DNA of 64,000 bases from an uncultured Gammaproteobacteria bacterium (GTDB taxonomy: Bacteria > Patescibacteriota > Patescibacteriia > Magasanikbacterales > UBA922): positions 64,446 to 128,445 of the forward strand of contig CAYQNA010000001.1 in the NCBI GenBank assembly GCA_964418775.1, given 5' to 3'. Each line of letters opens with the position of its first letter. The first letter of the stretch is position 1. Positions 23,258-36,234 of the stretch are shown here, piece by piece. The notes under the pieces are model-generated. The model saw only the letters and a list, made by a program, of their open reading frames with translations, was not told where the DNA came from and made no database searches. The translations under genes and the position numbers were made by a program.

Positions 23258-25633
23258 TTAGAATGGCAGGGCTTTGCCTTTAGCGTCTTCCTCTTCTTCG
23301 TCTTCTAATTCCTCATCCTCGGCATCTTCGTCGTCTAGTTCGGCTTCTTTCTCATCTTCGGCCTCGGTTTCGGGCGCGCTAAAAACGTTCAGCTCCTGAC
23401 CTGTATTCATTGTACCAGATTCGCCTTCGTCTGTCACAAATACCTCGCGTGGTTTGGCACCATCAGCCGGTCCAACAATACCAGCTTGCTCTAATTCATC
23501 GAGCAAGCGGGCCGCGCGTGCGTAGCCCACCTTCATGCGGCGTTGCAACAGCGAGGCGCTAGCTTTACCAGCCTGGATAACAAAACGTTTGGCATCTTCA
23601 AACAATGCATCTTGCTCGTCAGTTGGGCCGCCGAACATACTACCTGTCGCACTGCCAGTTTGTGAACCAACAATTGATTCATCGTACTCTGGCTCTTCGT
23701 CACCTTTAAGGTAATCAACCACACGCTTCATTTCTTCTTCAGAAATAAATGCACCTTGAATGCGCACTGGGCGCGACAATTCCGCACATGAATACAACAT
23801 GTCACCACGGCCTAATAGTTTTTCCGCACCAGGCGAATCTAAAATCGTGCGTGAGTCAATCACCGACGCAACCGAGAACGCAATGCGGCCTGGAATATTG
23901 GCCTTCATTAAACCAGTAATTACGTCAACACTTGGACGTTGTGTGGCGACAATCAAATGAATACCGACCGCACGAGCCATTTGCGCTAAACGAATAATGC
24001 CAGATTCAATTTCATTTGCAGCTGCGGCCATTAAGTCGGCCAATTCATCAATTACAAAAACAATGTAAGGAATTTTCGCTTCAGGATGTTTTTGATTGTA
24101 TGAACCAATGTCGCGACTACCAACTGAAGCCAGCAACTCAAACCGACGTTCCATTTCACCAATTGTCCACTTGAGCGCGTTTACGGTTTTTTGCACATTT
24201 GTAATTACGGGCGTCAGCAAATGTGGAATGCCATTATATAGCGTTAATTCAACGCGTTTTGGATCCACCATAATTAAGCGCAATGTTTCAGCCGTGTTTT
24301 GGTACAACAAGCCCATGATAATTGTGTTCATGCACACGGTTTTACCCGAACCAGTCGCACCAGCCACGAGCAAGTGGGGGAGGCGGGGTAAATCACCAAA
24401 CCATACTTTGCCCGCCACGTCTTTTCCGAGCAACAACTTGATATTGTGGTTGCGTTGACGGAAATCTTTGTCTTCGAGCAATTCTTTGAAGCTGACGAGC
24501 GCGGTTTTTTCATTTGGTACTTCTACACCCACCAGCGACTTGCCCGGAATTGGGGCTTCAATACGAATTGGATGTGCGGCAAGCGCGAGCGCTAAGTCAT
24601 TGCTTAGGCCGGTAATGCGCGACAATTTTACACCTGCGGCTGGTTTCATGGTGTATTGGGTCACAGTCGGTCCCACGCGCACTTCGCCCATGTCCACGTC
24701 AATGTTGAATTGTTCAAACGTATCTTTGATAATAGCGGCATTCGCATCAATATCACCGCTCGTTGGTTTGCCACGTTTATCAGATAACAAATCAAGTGGT
24801 GGCAAATTTTTGATCACCACTTTTTTGGACCACACATCATTGGCCGCTGGTTCTTCTGTTTCCTCATCCTCGTCTTCTTCCTCATCACCGTTTCGCACTA
24901 CCAATGCTTTTTTCTGGAATTGTGGTGCACCGGTTGTTTCCTCGGTTTCCTCGTCTTCCTCAGACTCCTCGTCTTCTTCACTTTCTTCCTCTTCTTCTGG
25001 TTCTTCCTCATCGTACTCTTCGTCATCATTAGCTACACGTACGCGCGCCATTTGTTTTTGTTCACTTGGCACAAAAATTCGGTGTACACCGCGGGCAATA
25101 GCCTGACCAAGGCCCACAAAAATCGATAACACCGCGCGATACATGTCCAAAAAACTGCCGATGAAGGGCTGAAACACGAGTAACACGCCCACCAGTGCCA
25201 AAGCAATCAATACAATCCACGCTGCAATCATGCCAAAGTATGTTTGCAACAACCAGGCTGCCATACCAAGCACGCCACCACCTTGGCCAGCGAGTGCTGC
25301 GTCCCACATTGCATCAGGTGCAAATTGCAAATGAAACAAACTGCAAACCGAAATAAAAAATAACAATCCGCCGAGCGCATGGGTCGGGTGATATCGGTAA
25401 TCTTTGCCAAGCACCATGAACCACGTAATGAGCAAGATTGCGGGTGGCACAGCATAACGCATGCCGCCAAACAGTGCGCTCAGTACATAATCATTCAGCA
25501 TAATGCCCACCACGCCTGCTTTGCCAAAAAAACTAAGCGTAATAATAATTGCAGCCAAAGCAAGTATAACCACAATAATCCCACGCGAGAGCGTAGGGTT
25601 AAGCATGGAATCAGACTGCCGCCGTCGTGGCAT
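23258..25633 (-). CDS. ftsK: DNA translocase FtsK/SpoIIIE
   Basis: N-terminal TM domain. Motor domain with Walker A GATGSGKTV, Walker B VFVIDELADL and ATQRPSVDVITG. C-terminal gamma winged-helix (LLQRRMKVGYARAARLLDELEQAGIVG). Unusual poly-acidic linker and C-terminal acidic tail. Confidence 0.93.
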   Translation of the reverse strand: MPRRRQSDSMLNPTLSRGIIVVILALAAIIITLSFFGKAGVVGIMLNDYVLSALFGGMRYAVPPAILLITWFMVLGKDYRYHPTHALGGLLFFISVCSLFHLQFAPDAMWDAALAGQGGGVLGMAAWLLQTYFGMIAAWIVLIALALVGVLLVFQPFIGSFLDMYRAVLSIFVGLGQAIARGVHRIFVPSEQKQMARVRVANDDEEYDEEEPEEEEESEEDEESEEDEETEETTGAPQFQKKALVVRNGDEEEDEDEETEEPAANDVWSKKVVIKNLPPLDLLSDKRGKPTSGDIDANAAIIKDTFEQFNIDVDMGEVRVGPTVTQYTMKPAAGVKLSRITGLSNDLALALAAHPIRIEAPIPGKSLVGVEVPNEKTALVSFKELLEDKDFRQRNHNIKLLLGKDVAGKVWFGDLPRLPHLLVAGATGSGKTVCMNTIIMGLLYQNTAETLRLIMVDPKRVELTLYNGIPHLLTPVITNVQKTVNALKWTIGEMERRFELLASVGSRDIGSYNQKHPEAKIPYIVFVIDELADLMAAAANEIESGIIRLAQMARAVGIHLIVATQRPSVDVITGLMKANIPGRIAFSVASVIDSRTILDSPGAEKLLGRGDMLYSCAELSRPVRIQGAFISEEEMKRVVDYLKGDEEPEYDESIVGSQTGSATGSMFGGPTDEQDALFEDAKRFVIQAGKASASLLQRRMKVGYARAARLLDELEQAGIVGPADGAKPREVFVTDEGESGTMNTGQELNVFSAPETEAEDEKEAELDDEDAEDEELEDEEEEDAKGKALPF

Positions 25634-26385: not shown

Positions 26386-26580
26386 AATCCAATCGGCCAA
26401 TCCCAAAAACACACCACTAATGGTGTGTTTTTAATTTGCATAATTTTAATTATATAAATTTTTTATAATTAAAAATATCCGGACCACTTTGAATTTCTGA
26501 AGCTTTTTGATTCCGTCGTGTCAACTGAGTCATGAGGCGGCAAGATTTAGGGAAAAAACTTCTCGCGCAGTAGACTGATT

Positions 26581-27681
26581 TTATGGATACGACTTAATGT
26601 TTTTTAGTCTTGGATACGGAATAACGTCTTTTATATCGTCTCTGCATAGCAGCCACGTAATATATCTTTCTATTCCCATGCCAAATCCTGCGGTGGAAGA
26701 ATACTGTGGCATGTCGCGTAAGTTTATATACCAATAGTATGGATCCGGTGGTATGTTTTGTCGCTTTAATGATTCGTAACATTCAACTGCTCTATCTTGC
26801 CTTTGACCACAACCAACTACTTCACCTCCAAATGAAAACTCTGTTAATGGGGGAAATATTAAATCAGCATTTAATACTTGGTCAGTATTTTTAGGATCTG
26901 GTTTTTGATAGAAAGGGACTCTGTCTCTGTCAAAATTAGTAATCCAAAAAGGTTCATTTGGAGAAAATATCTTTGATAACTCAATTTCTCCGATACTAGA
27001 AATATCTCTTCCATGATCTGTGTAATTTATATATTTTGTATAGCCATGCTCTTCAAGAATTTTTATTGCAGAATTAAAATCTATTTTTTTAAAAGATTTT
27101 AGGGATGCCAGTATTTTCATTGCCTGTTTAGAATGTTCAGGCGAACCACTTAAGCAATGTATTAAAAATGGTATATCTAGCATTGTTTGAGTGATATATT
27201 TTATATATTTTTCAACCAATTGCATGATGTCCGTCAAATTACCCCGCATTTCTGCCTCGCAGTGGAAAAATTGATTAAGGTGTCGTTTGTCAGGTTTCTC
27301 CCCTCGCATCGATGGTAAATAACAGTAGAGCAAATTAAAATTATTCATGAGAATTGGCTCAAAACCAAACTGTGATGAATCTACTAGAAATGTATCTAGG
27401 TTTCCAAACTGTATAGCGACAGCTTCACTGTCTGATCCTGGACCCATAGGACTGGATACAGAAGGAGTAAGCATAAACAAATCAACATTTATTCCATTCT
27501 GTTGGACAGAAAAAAAATCATCAGAGGCAAGTTTTAATACATGACGTAAATATAATATTGCATTCCAATATTTGTCTGTCGCTAGATCTTCGGTGTGACT
27601 TTTTGGATCGTATTTTGGCGGTTCCGTACCCCCTGCTTTTTCAAATAATTTGTTAATTTTTCTAAGCAAATCTTGGTTCAT
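26581..27681 (-). CDS. AsnRS-like class IIb aaRS catalytic-core paralog (lacks N-terminal OB anticodon-binding domain; archaeal AS-AR asparagine-synthetase-like)
   Basis: The C-terminus EFSFGGEVVGCGQRQ ... DPYYWYINLRDMPQYSSTAGFGMGIERYITWLLCRDDIKDVIPYPR aligns to the AsnRS motif 3 region (ELSSGSQRIH ... [30 protein letters not shown] ... VRDVIPFPR). The N-terminus aligns to the start of the catalytic domain, not to an OB fold. 366 aa, roughly 30% GC. Confidence 0.75.
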   Translation of the reverse strand: MNQDLLRKINKLFEKAGGTEPPKYDPKSHTEDLATDKYWNAILYLRHVLKLASDDFFSVQQNGINVDLFMLTPSVSSPMGPGSDSEAVAIQFGNLDTFLVDSSQFGFEPILMNNFNLLYCYLPSMRGEKPDKRHLNQFFHCEAEMRGNLTDIMQLVEKYIKYITQTMLDIPFLIHCLSGSPEHSKQAMKILASLKSFKKIDFNSAIKILEEHGYTKYINYTDHGRDISSIGEIELSKIFSPNEPFWITNFDRDRVPFYQKPDPKNTDQVLNADLIFPPLTEFSFGGEVVGCGQRQDRAVECYESLKRQNIPPDPYYWYINLRDMPQYSSTAGFGMGIERYITWLLCRDDIKDVIPYPRLKNIKSYP

Positions 27682-27688
27682 AAAATAA

Positions 27689-28675
27689 CTAGTGTGTAGT
27701 AATTATTAAAGAAACTTTGTCATTAATTGCCGATATTCTTGCCGTGCCCCCTATGGGAAATGTGGCGATCGGCATGGTGTGTCCTAATGTCATATTGGCA
27801 ACAATCGGTACAGACGTAAGTTCCTTTTTTGCTGCAATAATTTTCTTTAAAAAATCGGGTGTAATTTTTGTGATTTTTTTAAAGCGACCTATTACAATAC
27901 CCTTAATACCATTGAAATTGGGTAATTGAATAATTGATTGCAATAAGCGGTCAAAAATCATTGGGTTTATTTCCTCGTCCTCTTCTAAGAGTAATATTGA
28001 ATTTTCAAGTGATGGGAAATATTGTGTTCCTTGTAAGGAAGCAAAACAGCGCATATGTCCACCAATCAATGTTCCGGTTGCTTCGCCAGCTTTAATAATA
28101 TCAAAACCATTTGATTGGATGAATTCCCTTTTTTCTTGATCCAAGTACCAATCATCATCGCTCCAAAATTCGGAAGGGTTGATTTGATATTGGCCATCCT
28201 GCATACAACATTTCTCAAAGTATTCTTTGCTATAATCAAACCCTTTTTTTATGGCCCATGAAGAAAAATGTGGGCCATTACACCCCACCAATCCTGTTTT
28301 TGCATAAATTGCATTAGTTAGAACCGTTATATCTGAATAACCGCAAAGATATTTTGGATTTGATTTAATTAAATCATAATCAAGATAATCTAATAGTTGG
28401 TTTGAGTTATATCCGCCTATAGTCGTGAGTATTCCATCGACAGATGGATCTGAAAATGCATCATGCAAATCTTGCACCCTTGATTCAACTGATGAAGAAA
28501 AGAATTCATTAAATTCATTCACGTTTTTTCCAAAACTTACCCTAAACCCCGCATTTGCAAGTGCCTTTTCGGCTAATTTTACGGTGTCATTTGAAAGTAT
28601 TTTCATACTTCTAGAAGGAGCGATAACTCTAATATGCGAACCCTTTTTTAATTTTTTAGGTAGGATTGTTTCCAT
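27689..28675 (-). CDS. Peptidase S66 family LD-carboxypeptidase (LdcA/MccF-like)
   Basis: Nucleophile motif CGYSDITVL, His in LGHTMP, the acidic catalytic-Glu region LLLEEDEE, and N-terminal IRVIAPS. Start chosen at ATG 28675 (METILPKK...), 7 nt after the upstream stop. The track ORF extends to 28825. Confidence 0.75.
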   Translation of the reverse strand: METILPKKLKKGSHIRVIAPSRSMKILSNDTVKLAEKALANAGFRVSFGKNVNEFNEFFSSSVESRVQDLHDAFSDPSVDGILTTIGGYNSNQLLDYLDYDLIKSNPKYLCGYSDITVLTNAIYAKTGLVGCNGPHFSSWAIKKGFDYSKEYFEKCCMQDGQYQINPSEFWSDDDWYLDQEKREFIQSNGFDIIKAGEATGTLIGGHMRCFASLQGTQYFPSLENSILLLEEDEEINPMIFDRLLQSIIQLPNFNGIKGIVIGRFKKITKITPDFLKKIIAAKKELTSVPIVANMTLGHTMPIATFPIGGTARISAINDKVSLIITTH

Positions 28676-28682
28676 ATATTTA

Positions 28683-29789
28683 TTAAATATTTTCTTTAAT
28701 TGCTGACAAGAGGAATCCTTCTTCAGGAGACAGCGCATCCTGTATAAGAATTTTTTTTTCAATTTCTGGAATATACGAACTAATAAATTCTGACCCCTGA
28801 TGATTAATCCCTCGGCACTCTTCAAATTCTCGCATCATCTTTATTGTTGCTTTGGTTGATATTTTGAATTTATTTTTAAAATAAATCATTGCTCTTAGGT
28901 AAGATCTCAGAATTCGTTCTCTATTTTTATTTGCAGACGGCCGTAATCCTTCTGAGAGTAACATGCTAGATGTAATAATTGTATCCTCAAATTTAAATTT
29001 TAGTGGATCGTTAATCTTTTGAATGCCCAAAACAGGATTTGCAGAATTCACATGGTCAAGTGAAAAAAAATGTTTAAGAATAGTTGACGTGCCTAGAGCG
29101 AGCTCAACACCTAATTGTTTTTCGTTGTTTTCTAAAACAATCAAGTTGCCTATATCATGAAGAACCCCTTCTTTTTTAATGGAATAATTAAAATTTCTAC
29201 CCCACACACCGTTAACACCAACTTTATGTCTGTAGTATTTTTCAGGCATGGTGGTATCATCAAAACTTATACCTAAATTGGTATAAGTTTTTGCAAGCCG
29301 ATACAAATCTTTATCAGTATTATTTACTCGCAAAACTAGATTTTCTTTTGGTATATTTATAACATTTAACAAATAATCTAATGATTGGTCGCATAATTCA
29401 GATATTTTCTCGGGTATAACCAAAACACCCAAACTTTTAAAATAAGAGCCCCATGCTGGCACAATTGAGTCATTAAATATTTTTTGTAAATTTTGAGTTC
29501 TTACGCATTGCTGCGACATGACCAATCCGTTTTTAGGTATTTTGTTTTCCAAAAAATACTTTTTCATTGGGCTAATGTGTGAGCCAACAAATCTTACCGT
29601 TGGATCTATGCCTGAAGTAATGGTAACTGAGGGTATCTCCTTATATCCTTTTTCAGAAAAAAAGTCTATAAACGCCCGTATCATTTTTTCCGTATATTCA
29701 TGCATTTCTTCGGGGGCTGGCTTATATTCGCCAAATCCATAATCGAAAAGTGATTTATTAAAGGCAGGCTTTTTTGTATTTTTAATCAT
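28683..29789 (-). CDS. AlaRS-like class II aaRS catalytic (aminoacylation) domain paralog, truncated (no editing or C-Ala domains)
   Basis: IRAFIDFFSEKGYKEIPS ... DPTVRFVGSHISPMKKYFL ... SQQCVRTQN ... WGSYFKSLG parallels the AlaRS N-terminus (IRQAFLDFFHSKGH.VV.SS ... DPTLLFTNAGMNQFK ... SQRCVRAGG ... HHTFFEMLGNFSFG). About 368 aa from ATG 29789. AT-rich. Confidence 0.7.
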   Translation of the reverse strand: MIKNTKKPAFNKSLFDYGFGEYKPAPEEMHEYTEKMIRAFIDFFSEKGYKEIPSVTITSGIDPTVRFVGSHISPMKKYFLENKIPKNGLVMSQQCVRTQNLQKIFNDSIVPAWGSYFKSLGVLVIPEKISELCDQSLDYLLNVINIPKENLVLRVNNTDKDLYRLAKTYTNLGISFDDTTMPEKYYRHKVGVNGVWGRNFNYSIKKEGVLHDIGNLIVLENNEKQLGVELALGTSTILKHFFSLDHVNSANPVLGIQKINDPLKFKFEDTIITSSMLLSEGLRPSANKNRERILRSYLRAMIYFKNKFKISTKATIKMMREFEECRGINHQGSEFISSYIPEIEKKILIQDALSPEEGFLLSAIKENI

Positions 29790-29870
29790 ATTATAGTAGT
29801 ATGAAGTATAAAATACTACACTAACATTATGCCTATTCAGAATGAAAAATACAATATTAGTATTATTAAC

Positions 29871-30821
29871 ATGGAGACACATCCTAACCTAAAATCTATT
29901 TCGGAATTAGTTCAACTTAAAATAGGTGATATTCTTGATTTTAAAAAGATGTCCGGCGGAAGTAATGAAATTTTTTATATTAAAACCAATCATGGCGAGT
30001 TTATTGTAAAAATATACAATGAAGACAGCTCACAAAGAACTAATTTAAGTCGAGAAATACAAATGTCTAGCATATTGAAAGATTTTCCTGAAATAAGAAG
30101 TCTGGTTTTTTCTGATACAACAAGAAGTCAGATACCGTATGAGTTTGCAATATTTGAATATGTGGACGGCCAAACCTTACGATTTCTCGTTGAAAACAAT
30201 CTTTTAACAGATGAACAATTAGAAGTAATTGCTGATCAGATTTTTGATTTAATTAAAAGAATTATAGAAATTGCAACAAAAAAGTTTGGACAGCTGGATG
30301 AAAGTGGTTTGATAGGGACGTCTCAATCTTGGGTTGATTTTTTGGGTGGCATGCAAGATCCGACTACAAAAACATTTGAAAATAGTAACCTTTTCCCGGA
30401 CAAAGAATATTTAATACCGCAAGCAGTACTGGATAAACACAAAAGTGTATTTGAGCTAGATGATCCAAGATTGATCCCGATGGATTTAAATATAGACAAT
30501 ATAATTGTCACTCCCGATCAAAAAATAAAGTTTATAGACCCAGAAACTTTTTGGAGCGGTGATCCATTATGCGCATTTGCTCAATTTTATGCCCTAACAA
30601 AGGGCACCATATTAGGTGATAAATTTTTTGGGAATTTGGAGCTTTCACCAGATGATGAGTTCAAAGTTCGACTTTATGCACTCCTAGATAATCTGAATGT
30701 TCTTGCCTTTATAACGAGGGTTAATCCAGAAGGTGCTAAAGAAGCAAAGCCATATGGAAACCCAAACAAATTTTTTGATTTGATAAACGAGAATGTAAAA
30801 TTCTTTGAACAAAGTTTATAA
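29871..30821 (+). CDS. APH/choline-kinase-fold small-molecule kinase (aminoglycoside-phosphotransferase-like)
   Basis: Brenner-type catalytic loop PMDLNIDNIIV and metal-binding FIDPE. Protein-kinase-like fold length (about 316 aa from METHPNLK). Divergent from the AlaRS-like gene with an 80-nt AT-rich intergenic region. Confidence 0.6.
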   Translation: METHPNLKSISELVQLKIGDILDFKKMSGGSNEIFYIKTNHGEFIVKIYNEDSSQRTNLSREIQMSSILKDFPEIRSLVFSDTTRSQIPYEFAIFEYVDGQTLRFLVENNLLTDEQLEVIADQIFDLIKRIIEIATKKFGQLDESGLIGTSQSWVDFLGGMQDPTTKTFENSNLFPDKEYLIPQAVLDKHKSVFELDDPRLIPMDLNIDNIIVTPDQKIKFIDPETFWSGDPLCAFAQFYALTKGTILGDKFFGNLELSPDDEFKVRLYALLDNLNVLAFITRVNPEGAKEAKPYGNPNKFFDLINENVKFFEQSL

Positions 30822-30833
30822 AATGCAACGTCC

Positions 30834-32123
30834 ATGGAAAAAGTTTTAATTATTGGCAGCGCCACAAGTCGTGAATATGCTCTTGTTAGAGAGTTGTCAG
30901 TTTATTGTAAATGTAAAGTGAGTGCTTATTTATGGAGGGATAGTCATTTTATTAAAAATCATTGTACCAATTATGAAGTTGGCGATGTTCAGGATATTGA
31001 TAGAATTATTCAGTTTACTAAAAAGGTAAAGCCTGATTTTGTTATTGTTACACAGGGTGAAGCAATGCAAGTTGGAATCAGAAACCACTTAGATTCTATC
31101 AACATACCGTGTATATCGCCGACAAAAGAGCAAAGTAAATTAGAAAATAGTAAGATTTTTTGTCGACAATTTATTAAAGAGATAAACGAACACTTTGTAC
31201 CAAAACACAAAGCGTTCGACGTAAAAAATATTGCTGATTTAGATGGTTATATTAATGAATTAAAATCTGACAAGGTAGTATTAAAATTTGATGGACTCAT
31301 GAACTCTGAAGGGGTGAAGATTTATAACTTGAAAAAAGATTCAAAAAAAGATTTAAAAAATCAAGCAAATACATGGATTAAAAAAGTCAACGGCAAAATA
31401 GTTGTGGAAGAATTTGTTGAAGGAGATGAAGTTTCAATAATGAGTTTTGTCGATGGCACGAATATTGTACACATGCCCCCTGTTAAAAATTATAAGAAAA
31501 TCTGGGAAGGTGATGGTGGCGATAATACTTCTGGAATGGGTTCAATTACGATTGGCAAAACATTGGGTTTTTTAACAAATAAAGACGTCCTCAAATTAGA
31601 AGAAGTTAATAACCTAGTGTTTGAGAAAATAAAAAAGGATTTTTCAGAAAAATATATAGGTATATTGATGGGTGAATTCATAATTAATAATGGGGAAATT
31701 AAGGTTATTGAGTATAATACACGTTTTGGTAATCCTTCAACAATAAATATTTTAAATCTGTTAGATACTAGTTTTTTAGAAATTTGTAAATCAATGATAA
31801 GTGGTACGCTAAATAATACGCCTATTAAATGGAAAAATTTAGCATCAGTTTCTGTGTCGGTTGTACCAAAAGGTTATCCGTACTCAAAAGAAAATGTTGG
31901 AAAAAAAATAAATTTAACCAAACTAGAAAAAGAAGAACTGGGGCATATATTTTTTGCAAGCTTAAATGTGGATTCTAATAAAGATATCACACTTATGAAT
32001 TCAAGAAATTTAACAGTTTGTGTTGTTGGAGAAGAAATAAATAATTGCCGAAGCAGAATAATAAAAATTTTAGATAAAATTGGTGGGCCTATATATTTTA
32101 GAAAAGATATAGGAACTTTTTAA
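30834..32123 (+). CDS. PurD-like ATP-grasp ligase (phosphoribosylamine--glycine ligase homolog)
   Basis: MEKVLIIGSATSREYALVRELS matches MKVLVIGNGGREHALAWK. DGGDNTSGMGS matches DKDTGPNTGGMG. IKVIEYNTRFGNPST matches PKVIEFNCRFGDPET. The C-terminal GGPIYFRKDIG matches CFCRKDIG of PurD. Confidence 0.7.
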   Translation: MEKVLIIGSATSREYALVRELSVYCKCKVSAYLWRDSHFIKNHCTNYEVGDVQDIDRIIQFTKKVKPDFVIVTQGEAMQVGIRNHLDSINIPCISPTKEQSKLENSKIFCRQFIKEINEHFVPKHKAFDVKNIADLDGYINELKSDKVVLKFDGLMNSEGVKIYNLKKDSKKDLKNQANTWIKKVNGKIVVEEFVEGDEVSIMSFVDGTNIVHMPPVKNYKKIWEGDGGDNTSGMGSITIGKTLGFLTNKDVLKLEEVNNLVFEKIKKDFSEKYIGILMGEFIINNGEIKVIEYNTRFGNPSTINILNLLDTSFLEICKSMISGTLNNTPIKWKNLASVSVSVVPKGYPYSKENVGKKINLTKLEKEELGHIFFASLNVDSNKDITLMNSRNLTVCVVGEEINNCRSRIIKILDKIGGPIYFRKDIGTF

Positions 32124-32149
32124 GGCCTTTGATTATTTAGACATAATTT

Positions 32150-32722
32150 ATGTTAAAAGTTGGGTTTGACATGGATGGAGTTATTATTGACAACACAGTG
32201 TTTAAAAGTGATTTGTACCGTCAGAAAACTGGTATAAAGCTTGAATGTTGGAAGTTTAATTCAAATGTTATTGATGATTACATAACTAATACCCCTCTTC
32301 GTAAAGAAATAGACAAAATTAGCGCCATATCTGTACATCATAAAACAACTGAACAGAACATGCGCAACATTTTATTAGAAATAAAGTCCCACGCAGACAT
32401 TTTTTTGATTTCCTCAAGAGGAAAAAGTGAAGAGGGCGTGTTGGCAGCGCGACAAACCATTAAAAATCTAAAATTAGATACTATCTTTGGAGATAATATT
32501 TTTTTTACAAAAAACGATGGAGATAAAATTGAAAAAATTAAATTTCTTGAAATTGATTTTTTTATAGAGGACAGATTCGATGTTATTAGTATGCTACCTA
32601 AAAAAACAGCCATACTATATGATCAATTTTTTCAATGGAAAAAATATAAAAAATATATTATTATTAAATCACTCTTGGACATTATTCCGTTAATTAGATT
32701 TCAGGAGTACAGTGATAACTAA
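32150..32722 (+). CDS. HAD-superfamily phosphatase, 5'(3')-deoxyribonucleotidase (NT5C)-like
   Basis: Motif I FDMDGVIID (DxDGV) at the N-terminus and length about 190 aa are typical of NT5C-like HAD nucleotidases. Confidence 0.6.
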   Translation: MLKVGFDMDGVIIDNTVFKSDLYRQKTGIKLECWKFNSNVIDDYITNTPLRKEIDKISAISVHHKTTEQNMRNILLEIKSHADIFLISSRGKSEEGVLAARQTIKNLKLDTIFGDNIFFTKNDGDKIEKIKFLEIDFFIEDRFDVISMLPKKTAILYDQFFQWKKYKKYIIIKSLLDIIPLIRFQEYSDN

Positions 32723-32724
32723 GA

Positions 32725-34014
32725 TTGGGTGATGAATGTTACTATATGATCGGTACAGGAATTATCTTAAAACCAAATGGCGATGAAATTTTTATTAAGG
32801 ATGATGAGACTTTGGAATCTCTTATAAAAACAAAAATTACGAAAGAAATGGGAGCTTACTTGCGGAGAGCAGAGTTAGGAGGAAAAGTGAATGAAAGTAT
32901 GGTTGTGCAAAAAGCTATAGATTTGGGTTATTTATCTCACACCCTAAATACAAATGACGGTAGTGCAACATTTACCTCTAAGGGGAAAATAATAAAAGAA
33001 TTGATAACACAGTGGAGTAAATCAATCGCCAAAAATAAATTACAAGCTTTAGAAGTAGAAACTCCGGATATATATAAAGCTAATAAAGTTATATTATCAA
33101 TGCAAGATCAATTCGGCGAACCCCCTTTTTATATTAATGAAGAGGAAATATTAAGACCTGCATCTGATTTTGGGGTTTTTTCTTTGTATGGAGGGAAAAT
33201 ATTACAAGAATCAATTATTCCGCACAGAATTTTTGAGCTGGCAAATTGTTTTAGGCAGGAAGACGTGAATAGGGTTGATTTATTAGCAAGACCTAGGAAA
33301 TTTTCCATGCCTGATCTACACACATTTATTCAATTGAAAGATCTAGATAATGAACTAAAAATTCAGGAAGATGTTTATCTAGATGCAATGAGATCCATTG
33401 AACTTGAGTTTCTTGTTTCTGTTAGGACAACAACAGAAGAATACACTCAATTAAAAAAACATTTTTTTTATTTAGCTCAACAAACTAATAAAGAAGTTTA
33501 TATTAATATAGTACCAAGCAGGAAACGTTATTGGACAACTAAAATTAAATTCATCTACGTAGATAGTCTTGGCAATAATTTACAATTAACTACTATACAA
33601 ACTGACCACGATTCTGCCAAACTTTTTAATATCAAATTAAAAGATACTTATCCGAGTGTGCTTCATTCGTCGCTTGGCAGTATAGAGCGGCTGATGTATG
33701 CCCTTATTGACGAAGGATTAAAGGGAAAACATTTTATGTTACCACTATGGATAAGCCCCGTTCAAGCTATGATTTTTGGGGATAAAAAAAATTTAATGAT
33801 TGGGAGATTAGTGAGATATGAAAAATGTAGTGAAACTAGTATAAAATCAAATATGTTTGAAAGCTTTTTTAAAATTGGTATTCCTTATGTAATTGATGTT
33901 GATAATAACATTGCTTATAGCAGAGATGACCAGGAACAGGCTGACATGGTAATCAATAAAATTGAAATTATTAATAAAAATTTTTTGAATCTACCTAAAT
34001 CAAATAAATTTTAA
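32725..34014 (+). CDS. ThrRS-like class IIa aaRS paralog (catalytic + anticodon-binding domains only; no N1/N2 editing domains)
   Basis: Motif 2 RIFELANCFRQEDVNRVDLLARPRKFSMPDLHTF parallels the ThrRS sequence [33 protein letters not shown]. Motif 3 GSIERLMYALIDE followed by HFMLPLWISPVQAMIFG parallels GSMERFIGILTEE ... FPTWLAPVQVVIM, the catalytic/anticodon-domain junction. The motif 1 region GKIIKELITQWSKSIAKNKLQALEVETPDIY also matches. Confidence 0.7.
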   Translation: MGDECYYMIGTGIILKPNGDEIFIKDDETLESLIKTKITKEMGAYLRRAELGGKVNESMVVQKAIDLGYLSHTLNTNDGSATFTSKGKIIKELITQWSKSIAKNKLQALEVETPDIYKANKVILSMQDQFGEPPFYINEEEILRPASDFGVFSLYGGKILQESIIPHRIFELANCFRQEDVNRVDLLARPRKFSMPDLHTFIQLKDLDNELKIQEDVYLDAMRSIELEFLVSVRTTTEEYTQLKKHFFYLAQQTNKEVYINIVPSRKRYWTTKIKFIYVDSLGNNLQLTTIQTDHDSAKLFNIKLKDTYPSVLHSSLGSIERLMYALIDEGLKGKHFMLPLWISPVQAMIFGDKKNLMIGRLVRYEKCSETSIKSNMFESFFKIGIPYVIDVDNNIAYSRDDQEQADMVINKIEIINKNFLNLPKSNKF

Positions 34015-34015
34015 T

Positions 34016-34582
34016 ATGGCGAAAATCATACTGACTGGGCCACATTATTGTGGAAAAACCACTGTACTTAGAAAATTGAAGGATTACTTTTTAGATAACC
34101 CTGAAGTGGGTTTTATTGAAAGCGATGGAAGTCGCTGTCCAATTAGTTACAAAGATGTGGATTATTTGCGAGCAAATCCCAAAACAGAAATAAACATAAC
34201 ATATTGGATGATTGCAGATAACATAAAAAGAGAGATTGAGGCAAAAAATAAATATAAAAATTTAGTATTTGATCGCTGCGTCATAGATCAGCTTGCATAC
34301 CCCGCAGAAATTACCGGTAAAGATAATTTACCAAAATCCATAAATTTATTTATACGAGAATGGCTTATATTTGAACCATACGATAAGATATTTATATTTC
34401 CCGCAAACCCTGATTTTTTGAAAGCAGGTACAAATAATACTGGAGATGTAAATTTTCAGAAAAATATTGAACAAAGATATTTAGAATTAACCAAAGAATT
34501 TAATCTTTCGTCTGAAATACTCCCCTTAGATCAAGATAGACAAATTGATTTAATTTTAAATTATTTGAAGTCTAATTTATAA
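34016..34582 (+). CDS. P-loop NTPase, nucleoside/nucleotide-kinase-like (AAA_33/dNK-like)
   Basis: Walker A GPHYCGKTT at residues 8-16. 188 aa, a size typical of small-molecule kinases. Starts 1 nt after the ThrRS-like gene stop. Confidence 0.55.
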   Translation: MAKIILTGPHYCGKTTVLRKLKDYFLDNPEVGFIESDGSRCPISYKDVDYLRANPKTEINITYWMIADNIKREIEAKNKYKNLVFDRCVIDQLAYPAEITGKDNLPKSINLFIREWLIFEPYDKIFIFPANPDFLKAGTNNTGDVNFQKNIEQRYLELTKEFNLSSEILPLDQDRQIDLILNYLKSNL

Positions 34583-34931
34583 ATTGCCTGAAGCTCGTGT
34601 TTTTGTGTAAGTTAGAAAAATATAATCCGTTTTTTTGGCGTGTCGTCAATTATGGAAATTGGCGTGCAAAAGTTACAAGATTCCATAATCGGTGGCCAAT
34701 TGAAACTTTTTATTTTTACGGTTTGCAAAAAATCCCCGCATTACGGAGACTTTCGCCCTGCACGGCTGATTATATTTTTCAAAAGTAACTCACTGATCAC
34801 TGCACCAACAAGTGGTTAAGTAATCAGTGAGGGGGAGCGTCGTGCGAAACGATTCATACTCCCGACTGTGTCATCCGCTTGCGCGATTGACTCGGGTCGG
34901 AGCGTGAGCTCCCCAACACCTCCTTAGTTGC

Positions 34932-35708
34932 CTACTCCTCCGGAATGCAGCCCTCGATGGGCTCGTTGTACCGGCACTCGTTGCCCGACCCTGCAAAGTG
35001 CAGACAAACATTCTGCAGACAGGGATCATCGGTGACCCCGCAGTCCGTATCCGTCTGGCAAGTGTCGATGCACTTCACCTCGGGCTCGGACGTGCACAGA
35101 TTGTTGCAGAACTGACCGACGCCCATGCTGGGCTGGCAGGTCGAGTCTTCCTCACAGGAGTAGAGCAGCATACCAACACTGCTCCCGTTGCAGACCTTGT
35201 CAGCTTTGCAATCCGCGTGCGTCTTGCATGGCTTGCATCCCTCCACTGTTGCGTGGGCGCAGAAACCCCCATCGCAAGTTTCAGTCGTGCAGCCCTGGCC
35301 GTCGTCGCAGTCCTCGTCGGACTGGCACTGGACCTCGCTGGCCCAGATCTCTGGTGTGTCGGTCGGCTGCGACGCTTCTTCCTCGGCCTTCTGGCTCTGG
35401 AAGTACATGATGAGGTCTTCGAGCATCTCGTCGGAGAGGGTGAACGTGCCCTGTTCCACCGAGAACATGGTGGGTGCTCCGACCTGACCTTCCTCACCCG
35501 TGAGGTCGGTACCGTCAAAACCAACGGCCGGTTCCGGCCAATCGACGCCCGGCTCACCCATGGGACCGTCGACCCCGTGGGTACCGTCGCCGTTGTTGGT
35601 CTCGTCCACGCTGTTCGCGGTGGTACACACCGGGTCCGGGCTCACGCAGTCGCGCGAGCAGGAAGAGACGAGGGCAACGAAGACGGACAGCGTGTTGAAC
35701 TTATTCAT
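34932..35708 (-). CDS. Cysteine-rich secreted lipoprotein (repeated CxxDxDC-type modules), GC-rich and probably foreign
   Basis: Signal peptide with lipobox (LVSSC). About 28 Cys in repeated motifs (CQSDEDCDDGQGC, CKTHADCKADKVC, CQTDTDCGVTDDPC). Composition is strongly GC-rich. Long ORFs on the opposite strand look like GC-driven artefacts. Confidence 0.55.
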   Translation of the reverse strand: MNKFNTLSVFVALVSSCSRDCVSPDPVCTTANSVDETNNGDGTHGVDGPMGEPGVDWPEPAVGFDGTDLTGEEGQVGAPTMFSVEQGTFTLSDEMLEDLIMYFQSQKAEEEASQPTDTPEIWASEVQCQSDEDCDDGQGCTTETCDGGFCAHATVEGCKPCKTHADCKADKVCNGSSVGMLLYSCEEDSTCQPSMGVGQFCNNLCTSEPEVKCIDTCQTDTDCGVTDDPCLQNVCLHFAGSGNECRYNEPIEGCIPEE

Positions 35709-35967
35709 GACTGACTCCGATGCGGCCGTGTAGCGGTCCGCGTTTATGCCCCACAGGGCTAGATTGGAATGGTCCGGACTGGCTGACGAGTGTCATCCTG
35801 CCCAGAGCTTTGGGAGGGTCAAGCACTACCCTGGCAAAGCTGTAGGAAGGAAAAGCCGTAAAATTTTAACCGCGGAGTATACCTTTTTTTCAACCCCTTA
35901 GGACGTCAAAAGACCGGTTAAAACCGGTCTTTCTTGGCTAGATTAAGCCTTTTTGTTGGCTGCCTCC

Positions 35968-36234
35968 TTACTCCTCGCCCAGTCCCAGCTTTTCCTCTAT
36001 TAAGGTAAGGCTGCTGGCCATGGCATCGGCATCGGCCCGGGTGCGGTCGTCCAGTTTGTGGAGCTGTAGGCGGAGGTCGGTCAGGCCGCGGTCGAGGTTG
36101 GTGCCCAAGTGGCCAATTTGCTGGCGGCATTGCTGGGCCGTGACCTCTAGGTTTCCCAGGGTATCCAGGATGTCTCCTAGGAGGCGGGGGAGGTCACTAA
36201 GGTTAACGTCAGGTACATAGGTTGTGGTTGCCAT
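35968..36234 (-). CDS. Small hypothetical protein (coiled-coil-like)
   Basis: ATG at 36234 (MATTTYVPDVNLSDLPRLLGDILD...), 88 aa. Lies in the same GC-rich segment. No motif. Confidence 0.35.
   Translation of the reverse strand: MATTTYVPDVNLSDLPRLLGDILDTLGNLEVTAQQCRQQIGHLGTNLDRGLTDLRLQLHKLDDRTRADADAMASSLTLIEEKLGLGEE

Follow-up and report, generated by a model that had tools for sequence, protein, structure and literature searches.

An AgnA-related synthetase core and an MccF-type hydrolase in a low-GC island of a Patescibacteria genome: a candidate cassette for an aminoacyl-adenylate mimic

Background

The agn cluster of agrocin 84 includes AgnA, the methyltransferase AgnB1, the MccF-like protein AgnC5, a protein related to aminoacyl-tRNA synthetases (aaRSs) named AgnC1, and a resistant leucyl-tRNA synthetase (LeuRS) named AgnB2 (PMC8323819). 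AgnA is a truncated homolog of asparaginyl-tRNA synthetase (AsnRS) without the anticodon domain, and is the proposed maker of the phosphoramidate bond of agrocin 84 (PMC4392301, PMC8323819). Here we describe a locus with a related protein in a stretch of 64,000 nucleotides (hereafter the window) of contig CAYQNA010000001.1 (positions 64,446 to 128,445; GenBank assembly GCA_964418775.1), which is deposited under an uncultured Gammaproteobacteria bacterium and placed in the Patescibacteriota (Magasanikbacterales) by its GTDB lineage. The gene for an AsnRS-like catalytic core lies there beside those for a serine hydrolase of family S66 and a protein like alanyl-tRNA synthetase (AlaRS), all within an island of low guanine plus cytosine (GC) content. 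Judging from homology and gene context, on which all of the functions assigned in this study are based, we consider it rather likely that the island is a cassette of the agrocin 84, ascamycin or processed microcin C kind, which would make a non-hydrolysable aminoacyl-adenylate mimic and provide self-protection.

Two further systems are relevant for comparison. The aspartamide-adenylate of microcin C is inactivated by four classes of enzymes, namely S66 (MccF), GNAT (the C-terminal domain of MccE), HIT (MccH) and S51 (MccG) (PMC8323819, PMC7157772, PMC9239234). In ascamycin biosynthesis, AcmF is a truncated AlaRS-like protein that has only the aminoacylation and tRNA-recognition domains, carries an essential Glu232 in place of Asp and cannot activate alanine; it moves Ala from Ala-tRNA(Ala) to the -NH2 of a 5'-O-sulfamoyl nucleoside (PMC12945691). 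In a review of 2021, RefSeq BLASTP with the Agn proteins gave only one full agn-like cluster (in Ensifer) and actinobacterial AgnC1 clusters (PMC8323819). Our full-text literature searches found no paper linking either the candidate phyla radiation (CPR, Patescibacteria) or the AsnRS-like family to MccF or AgnA.

The AsnRS-like protein

The operon that carries the AsnRS-like gene consists of the following elements.

26581..27681, minus strand: AgnA-family AsnRS-like catalytic core, 366 aa, without anticodon-binding domain (Pfam, NCBIfam, AlphaFold2)
27682..27688, minus strand: 7-nt spacer ttatttt from the S66 stop to the AsnRS-like start (sequence)
27689..28675, minus strand: MccF-clade S66 serine hydrolase, 328 aa (both Pfam S66 domains)
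28683..29789, minus strand: truncated AlaRS-like protein, 368 aa, AcmF-like, gene 1 of 3 of the operon (Pfam, AlphaFold2)

The two open reading frames (ORFs) for the AsnRS-like and S66 proteins, described in an earlier note on this DNA, were found again on the minus strand, separated by exactly 7 nt (TAG-ttatttt-ATG). All three genes are on this strand and are transcribed in the order AlaRS-like, S66, AsnRS-like; the AlaRS-like gene ends 7 nt upstream of the S66 gene, and both spacers of the operon are thus of 7 nt.

The AsnRS-like protein contains the motifs YYWYINLRD, GFGMGIERY and VIPYPR and matches Pfam tRNA-synt_2 (2e-27) in its catalytic part only. In NCBIfam, it covers only positions 130-451 of the asnS model, which means that it lacks the N-terminal OB anticodon-binding domain. 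Pfam and NCBIfam thereby agree with the earlier note, which had described an AsnRS-derived core with the C-terminal signature motifs that starts at the catalytic domain. The AlphaFold2 model (predicted local distance difference test score, pLDDT, 87) had AsnRS 1x54 as the top fold match, with a template modeling (TM) score of 0.79. The note had further compared the protein with the archaeal AsnRS-derived asparagine synthetase (AS-AR), and this identification was not supported here. Its NCBIfam scores were 152 bits for asnS and 141.7 bits for AS-AR (cut-off 389), both far under the cut-offs. In the PDB sequence search, AS-AR 3p8t appeared only at 8e-9 and AsnRS at 2.5e-24, and Foldseek with the model placed AsnRSs on top and AS-AR at rank 49.

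When compared by BLASTP with a handful of reference sequences, the protein scored 150 bits with AgnA (32% identity over 337 aa), 100 bits with AsnRS of E. coli, 29 bits with aspartyl-tRNA synthetase (AspRS) and 18 bits with AsnA, and AgnA itself scored 77 bits with the E. coli AsnRS. A hidden Markov model of the AsnRS-like family gave 188 bits for AgnA and 113 bits for the E. coli AsnRS and did not match AspRS or AsnA, the similarity to E. coli AsnA not being detectable. By these scores, AgnA is a nearer relative of the protein than true AsnRS, AspRS or AsnA are.

Two subfamilies are recognized; the identity between them is 32-36%, and that of either to true AsnRS is 25-29%. The first includes AgnA and the proteins of Xenorhabdus, Bacillus pseudomycoides and Pantoea (41-51% mutual identity). 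The second, to which the window protein belongs, is compact: its members are about 370 aa long and 50-77% identical, are abundant in metagenome-assembled genomes of Patescibacteria/CPR and also occur in Calothrix and on Bradyrhizobium symbiosis plasmids. Public records name the relatives of the window proteins "asparaginyl-tRNA synthetase", "asparagine synthetase A", "amino acid--tRNA ligase-related protein" and "muramoyltetrapeptide carboxypeptidase LdcA".

Motif 2 (R..E..RHL..E.E), D..GE..G.QR and motif 3 (GFGxGxER) are intact in the family, and R126, E128, E142, E144, D273, E287, R294 and R339 are invariant across 24 members, R126 being the motif 2 Arg and R339 the motif 3 Arg. This conservation supports the prediction of an AsnRS-derived catalytic core with complete class II ATP/Mg and amino-acid-pocket residues. 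The arginines for ATP and amino-acid binding, the absence of which the earlier note had named as evidence against its proposal, are all kept (R126, R294 and R339). A segment common to the window family and AgnA, VSSPMGxGSDS, was aligned by MAFFT with the flipping loop of AsnRS. In human AsnRS, the Glu of this loop contacts the asparagine moiety (PMC10831071); the CPR-type family retains it, and AgnA has Leu instead. With an Asn pocket that is intact, the substrate of the window protein is probably asparagine.

The S66 hydrolase

The S66 protein starts with METILPKK, and an independent gene call agrees with this start; a longer ORF from TTG overlaps the upstream gene. Both S66 Pfam domains (N and C) and the GYSD nucleophile motif are present. 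In the PDB sequence search, the best matches were the "MccF-like" BA_5613 of B. anthracis (4e5s; 4e-112, about 60% identity) and Lmo1638 of Listeria (2e-101, about 56%), followed by BaMccF (3e-44), E. coli MccF (1.5e-33, 28% identity) and the LdcA enzymes (1e-17 to 1e-20). The NCBIfam LdcA score was 105.4, as compared with a cut-off of 378. The similarity of the window-type S66 proteins to the stand-alone BA_5613 and Lmo1638 (about 56-60%) equals that to other CPR copies, which may reflect horizontal transfer or strong conservation of the substrate.

In an alignment on E. coli MccF numbering, S118 and H311 do not vary, and position 243 is occupied by Glu or Asp; the window protein keeps the triad residues S114, Glu and H299, confirming the GYSD nucleophile and His/Glu triad read earlier. 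N220 and K247 of MccF, two positions of our own choice, are not conserved in this alignment. The position of W186 in MccF, which is W176 in the window protein, is conserved in 69 of the 72 S66 sequences and is a gap in LdcA. In MccF, this Trp stacks on adenine (PMC8323819). In a rough neighbor-joining tree (this and the other trees of this study were built from small samples), all of the S66 proteins from these loci group with MccF, AgnC5 and BA_5613, and LdcA forms a long outgroup branch. These results support the placement of the window protein with MccF rather than with LdcA, and the E-values, the tree and Trp186 agree with the MccF-type assignment of the earlier note. Clustering with LdcA and murein genes in the vicinity, which would have spoken against that note, were not found: the grouping is with MccF, and no murein gene lies beside the AsnRS-like/S66 pair in 80 neighborhoods.

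The AlaRS-like protein

The AlaRS-like protein matches Pfam tRNA-synt_2c in the N-terminal part only. An hhalign comparison with the AlaRS of E. coli gave a probability of 96%, and the AlphaFold2 model (pLDDT 93.8) had an AlaRS catalytic fragment (1riq) as the top fold match. The motif 2 Arg (R97) and the start of the tRNA-recognition domain are retained. The motif 3 Arg has been lost, and an invariant Glu (E229) takes the place of the alanine-binding Asp235. The protein would thus resemble AcmF, as described in the literature, in its truncation, its lost motif 3 Arg and its Glu, although it keeps the motif 2 Arg and Asn215, the latter being Gln in AcmF. Only 40 members of the family could be detected, and none has an informative name.

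A conserved module in other genomes

Based on a scan of 185,579 species-representative genomes, 116 carriers of the AsnRS-like gene were found, and 80 loci were kept for neighborhood clustering. The partners were defined by unbiased clustering of neighboring ORFs, and S66 genes were counted within 6 kb. An S66 gene exists near the AsnRS-like gene in 73 of the 80 loci (mostly CPR, plus Calothrix), and because the adjacency recurs in so many species-representative genomes, it is not due to chance. A class I S-adenosylmethionine (SAM) methyltransferase is encoded in 71 loci. The second partner, with about 370-400 aa, belongs to the AlaRS-like family in about 22 loci and to another family, c3, in 26 loci, and the two never occur together; in hhalign, c3 and the AlaRS-like family are not significantly similar (E = 0.02). 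Rarer partners are an HD-domain protein, an APH-like kinase, HIT, peptidase S51 and a pyridoxal phosphate-dependent decarboxylase. Three gene orders were recognized, namely methyltransferase, AlaRS-like, S66 and AsnRS-like (the window type, the window itself being without the methyltransferase); AsnRS-like, methyltransferase and S66, with c3 on the opposite strand; and methyltransferase, c3, S66 and AsnRS-like.

The median identity of S66 proteins is 63% within the AlaRS type but falls to 31% when AlaRS-type loci are compared with c3-type loci, whereas that of the AsnRS-like proteins is about 57% in every comparison class, with the operon types intermixed in the AsnRS-like tree. At the level of these sequences, the type of S66 co-varies with the second component and not with the AsnRS-like gene, which implies that the second component and S66 are exchanged jointly, while the AsnRS-like gene (plus methyltransferase) stays constant. 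This situation fits an enzyme acting on a variable, amino-acid-specific product. In Parcubacteria bacterium OLB19 (L059, 9847-11925, minus strand), the AlaRS-like and S66 proteins are joined in frame in one ORF of 692 aa with no stop between them, which may be a real fusion or an assembly error; none of the top 120 S66 homologs showed a further fusion of this type.

The enzyme classes that inactivate microcin C recur around the AsnRS-like core. In addition to the S66 genes, HIT and S51 genes adjoin it in some CPR loci, and distant relatives of the core are fused to a GNAT domain (Acetyltransf_3), to HIT, to a methyltransferase domain, or to Asparaginase_2 with or without HIT. Because all four classes are found beside or fused to the core, it can be argued that the product is an aminoacyl-nucleotide phosphoramidate. 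On Pantoea agglomerans plasmids, a GNAT::AsnRS-like fusion stands beside an MFS transporter. In five proteins of 1,000-1,570 aa (P0321, P0337, P0338, P0347 and P0355), the AsnRS-like core is joined to a carnitine-acyltransferase-like domain, Asparaginase_2 and HIT; the carnitine-acyltransferase domain hints that these proteins may be eukaryotic.

A plasmid search with the S66 protein matched agnC5 on pAgK84, and AgnA, annotated as "agrocin 84 synthetase", is encoded on the same plasmid. The megaplasmid of Xenorhabdus bovienii CS03 (L105/L107, NZ_FO818638.1, about 10.4-20.7 kb) carries an agn-like cluster in the order AgnA-like core, methyltransferase (41% identity to AgnB1), S66, nucleoside phosphorylase, VOC-family protein, GloA, an extra leuS, a class IIa aaRS-related protein and an MFS transporter. 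The extra leuS is a hallmark of self-resistance, and the whole looks like an undescribed cluster of the agrocin 84 type that would target LeuRS. On symbiosis plasmids of Bradyrhizobium barranii/elkanii (L103, e.g., NZ_CP088278.1, 409139-412924), S66, the AsnRS-like protein (53% identity to that of the window), a HAD-IA protein and a SAM methyltransferase are encoded together; this block sits between insertion sequence elements, beside nodU. Methyltransferases are also present in the agn, Xenorhabdus, Bacillus and Bradyrhizobium clusters. The conserved methyltransferase showed no similarity to MccD (E = 0.12), and the CPR type had only generic similarity (4e-5) to AgnB1. The AgnA-like clusters of B. 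pseudomycoides, Pantoea and one further locus (L076) have no S66 gene.

The low-GC island and its divergent arm

The remaining features of the island are as follows.

29790..29828, no strand: divergent intergenic region, 39 bp, with a 7-bp inverted repeat (sequence)
29829..30821, plus strand: APH-family small-molecule kinase, 330 aa (Pfam APH)
30834..32123, plus strand: PurD-like ATP-grasp ligase, 429 aa (GARS_N/A/C domains)
32150..32722, plus strand: 190-aa protein with an N-terminal DMDGV motif, putatively a HAD-like phosphatase (translation)
32725..34014, plus strand: ThrRS catalytic-core paralog without N-terminal editing domains, 429 aa (NCBIfam, PDB match)
34016..34582, plus strand: P-loop nucleotide/nucleoside kinase-like protein, 188 aa (Pfam AAA_28)
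26440..34800, no strand: low-GC island with all of the genes listed here and above (GC content)

The island is about 8.4 kb long (about 26.44-34.8 kb), with a GC content of 0.27-0.37 inside and 0.45-0.63 outside, and is flanked by ordinary housekeeping genes (FtsK, RecA). Its eight genes include three class II aaRS paralogs, which are AsnRS-, AlaRS- and threonyl-tRNA synthetase (ThrRS)-like, and its divergent arm is an operon of five further enzyme-like genes. The closest relative (L001, 77% identity) has the same six-gene block as the window, also as a low-GC island but between different housekeeping genes. Since low-GC islands with different flanks occur in two genomes, the cassette is regarded as mobile and accessory. 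No tRNA gene, integrase or clear direct repeat was found at the ends of the island, where there are only AT-rich chance repeats; the sole tRNA detected, a tRNA-Ser, is 10 kb away. A scan for promoters and terminators gave sites no more frequent than in shuffled sequence, and the PADLOC defense models gave nothing meaningful, just weak kinase matches. The 39 bp between the two divergent operons contain a perfect inverted repeat, GTAGTAT-N10-ATACTAC (29796-29802 / 29813-29819), which is a possible operator.

In the divergent arm, the APH kinase (Pfam APH, 4.7e-11), the PurD-like ligase (TIGR00877, 287.5 against a cut-off of 288) and the DMDGV protein, which has no Pfam or NCBIfam match, are kept together in the cassette of the closest relative, with identities of 71%, 70% and 66%, respectively. 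There are no other purine genes in the island. The ThrRS-like protein scored 190 bits with the NCBIfam ThrRS model, under the cut-off, and its best PDB match was the yeast mitochondrial ThrRS 3ugq. The motif 2 and motif 3 Arg and two Zn-ligand His are kept, and the Zn-ligand Cys is changed to Asp. The gene is unique to the window among about 90 related loci, and the protein may be a resistant or replacement ThrRS (the target) or a second activating enzyme. The P-loop kinase-like protein matches Pfam AAA_28 (1.6e-10) and, weakly, dTMP kinase.

Outside the island, a high-GC stretch (0.55-0.63, 34800-36000) adjoins it on the right and includes an ORF for a cysteine-rich, probably secreted protein of 258 aa with no Pfam match (34932-35708, minus strand). 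The FtsK encoded at 23258-25633 (minus strand) has an acidic linker of unusual length, rich in Asp/Glu, and its C-terminal tail is acidic as well.

Proposed pathway and alternatives

The assignment of roles to the AsnRS-like, AlaRS-like and S66 proteins and to the divergent arm is, in our judgment, about evenly balanced between right and wrong. The AsnRS-like enzyme of the AgnA family would use ATP and probably asparagine, as substrate or as nitrogen source, for a nucleotide scaffold with a P-N bond, a chemistry that would be constant throughout the family. The AcmF-like AlaRS paralog would place alanine, probably from Ala-tRNA(Ala), on the -NH2 of this scaffold, and the product would be an alanyl-phosphoramidate adenosine, a non-hydrolysable mimic of Ala-AMP. 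The MccF-like S66 would cut the aminoacyl-nitrogen bond of the warhead and, matched to the AlaRS-like component, would confer self-immunity by de-aminoacylation. The APH kinase, PurD-like ligase, HAD-like protein, ThrRS core and P-loop kinase of the divergent arm may contribute tailoring, substrate supply and possibly target replacement. The earlier suggestion of a toxin-like metabolite with self-protection has thereby gained strong comparative support from the homology to AgnA, the MccF-like gene of the agn cluster and the Xenorhabdus core with its extra LeuRS; its notion of an Asp-AMP former, as opposed to an Asn-type pocket, received no such support.

Several points weigh against this scheme. 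The agrocin 84 pathway is stated to be unknown and the activity of AgnA only proposed (PMC8323819), and the roles of the AsnRS-like family, AgnA included, are here read from homology and gene context. Asparagine is assigned as the substrate solely from retained AsnRS residues. The AlaRS-like protein was likened to AcmF by description and not by sequence, and it keeps Asn215, which is Gln in AcmF. The methyltransferase found in 71 of the 80 relatives was not detected by tblastn in the window, and the island encodes neither an exporter nor a full-length extra AlaRS. Finally, the mid-operon position of S66 and the OLB19 fusion are no less compatible with a role in processing than with immunity.

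Such a processing role is the core of the first alternative, which we consider rather unlikely. It keeps the same class of pathway and makes S66 a biosynthetic enzyme: the AsnRS-like enzyme would adenylylate asparagine so that the amide N becomes P-N-linked, either by MccB-like succinimide chemistry or by flipped binding as AsnA and AS-AR bind Asp; S66 would remove aspartate to give AMP-NH2 (adenosine 5'-phosphoramidate), and the AcmF-like AlaRS paralog would alanylate AMP-NH2. There are precedents for each of these reactions among related or analogous enzymes: processed microcin C loses its aspartate to MccF (PMC8323819), a 5'-X-NH2 nucleoside is aminoacylated by AcmF (PMC12945691), and Gln supplies, through its amide, the nitrogen of the Campylobacter phosphoramidate (PMC6429109). 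The AsnRS-like pocket does not vary, even among clusters that seem directed at different aaRSs (e.g., LeuRS in agn and Xenorhabdus), Asparaginase_2 and S51, which also hydrolyze aspartyl amide bonds, are fused or adjacent, and the S66 gene lies in the middle of the operon, 7 nt from both neighbors, with the OLB19 fusion as a further argument. However, S66 follows the second component, whereas a constant Asp-N-P substrate would predict that it tracks the AsnRS-like gene. Moreover, AgnA-like clusters exist without S66 (B. pseudomycoides, Pantoea and L076), and the fusion has no counterpart among the top S66 homologs.

Two other alternatives each have a slim chance. In the first, the pair is a defensive or salvage module, in which S66 would cleave the aminoacyl-nucleotide antibiotics of neighbors and the AsnRS-like protein, as an amidase/ligase of the AS-AR type, would recycle aspartate to asparagine. 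This would suit CPR cells, which rely on hosts and neighbors for metabolites, as well as the AS-AR-like architecture (catalytic core only) and the stand-alone state of the nearest S66 relatives with structures, BA_5613 and Lmo1638; stand-alone MccF, HIT and S51 homologs are resistance genes (PMC8323819, PMC7157772, PMC9239234). However, it leaves the obligatory methyltransferase, the second aaRS-like partner, the homology to the biosynthetic AgnA, and the resistant aaRS copies and exporters of the Xenorhabdus and agn clusters unexplained, and the score for AS-AR membership is not reached.

The second, similarly doubtful alternative is a tRNA-independent or aminoacyl-tRNA-dependent aminoacylation of a non-toxic target (a cofactor, a signaling nucleotide or an envelope component), with S66 as a trimming or recycling peptidase. 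Many aaRS paralogs have roles other than toxin synthesis, such as PoxA/EpmA, MshC and the amino acid:carrier-protein ligases. The kinases, the phosphatase-like protein and the ATP-grasp ligase in the window would suit a pathway for a nucleotide metabolite, and there is no exporter in the island. Against this stand the sporadic, island-borne distribution (116 of the 185,579 species representatives), the linkage of the core to enzymes of the microcin C immunity type and to extra aaRS copies, and the homology to AgnA, which would be left unexplained.

A housekeeping pair, i.e., an asparagine synthetase of the AS-AR type beside an LdcA carboxypeptidase for murein recycling, as the automatic AsnRS, "asparagine synthetase A" and LdcA names of the relatives would have it, is very improbable and already largely refuted by the NCBIfam scores (LdcA 105 against 378, AS-AR 142 against 389), by the clustering of S66 with MccF and its Trp186 that LdcA lacks, by the 80 neighborhoods free of murein genes, and by the location in a low-GC mobile island.

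Significance

If the reading as a cassette for an aminoacyl-adenylate mimic is extended to the other loci, the CPR, some rhizobia and some cyanobacteria may possess modular "plug-and-play" factories for aaRS inhibitors, a proposal that we put forward only tentatively. A constant AgnA-like scaffold builder, usually with a methyltransferase and with Asn as a possible nitrogen donor, would be combined with a swappable pair, an aaRS-derived transferase (AlaRS-like, c3 or other) and the MccF-type hydrolase that matches it, which would set the mimicked aminoacyl-adenylate and the synthetase that is hit; the window would then hold a phosphoramidate analog of the ascamycin system from a minimal-genome organism.

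Agrocin 84 is a commercial biocontrol antibiotic, and a minimal relative of three to four genes would make the question of how its P-N bond arises directly testable. Minimal relatives of the agn core exist in cultured Bradyrhizobium and Xenorhabdus, which are tractable hosts. Almost no secondary metabolism is generally ascribed to the Patescibacteria (CPR). If the proposal is true, an island-borne aminoacyl-adenylate mimic would be a translation-aimed chemical weapon or a tool of host manipulation for CPR episymbionts. It would also represent a third natural route to aminoacyl-nucleotide inhibitors of aaRSs, beside the MccB/ThiF-type and sulfamate-type routes, and would extend the AcmF type of aaRS-derived transferase beyond the actinomycetes. 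The stand-alone S66 enzymes BA_5613 and Lmo1638 would gain a candidate natural substrate.

Comparison with known systems

The agn cluster shares with the window an AsnRS core without anticodon domain, AgnA being the closest named relative of the window protein, as well as an MccF-like S66 (AgnC5, 27% identity), a second aaRS-like protein (AgnC1) and the plasmid- or island-borne location (PMC8323819, PMC4392301). However, with 32% identity, the AsnRS-like protein of the window belongs to another subfamily, and its family has the flipping-loop Glu where AgnA has Leu. The window is without an AgnB1-like methyltransferase, the numerous tailoring genes of agn, an exporter and a full-length resistant aaRS. 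In addition, its second component is derived from AlaRS and is unrelated to AgnC1, which showed no similarity to the AlaRS-like, ThrRS-like or c3 proteins.

The S66 protein is the same as MccF and its stand-alone homologs (BaMccF, BA_5613 and Lmo1638) in the fold, the Ser-His-Glu triad and the adenine-stacking Trp186. This situation is different from that of the microcin C cluster as a whole, since the island has neither an MccA peptide gene nor the ThiF-like adenylyltransferase MccB, Pfam and NCBIfam detecting no ThiF-family member among the island proteins, and its nucleotide-forming enzyme would be derived from an aaRS. The archaeal AS-AR (AsnA-type, Pyrococcus) likewise has an AsnRS/AspRS-type core without anticodon domain and gives a significant fold match, but is not the closest relative by sequence (8e-9, against 2.5e-24 for AsnRS) or by fold. 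AS-AR genes are not known to be linked to S66, methyltransferase and aaRS-like partners.

The ascamycin system (AcmF/AcmD/AcmE) also has a truncated AlaRS-like protein in a cluster for an alanyl-nucleoside aaRS inhibitor, in which activation residues are lost (in the window protein, the motif 3 Arg) and Glu stands for the alanine-binding Asp, and it encodes an alanyl-removing hydrolase, AcmE (PMC12945691). It differs in having a sulfamate instead of a phosphoramidate and in AcmE being an alpha/beta hydrolase, not S66, and the acm cluster as described has no AsnRS-like enzyme (PMC12945691). In short, the agrocin-type and ascamycin-type logic is known, and what appears to be new is its minimal, modular form, which would be widespread in CPR bacteria.

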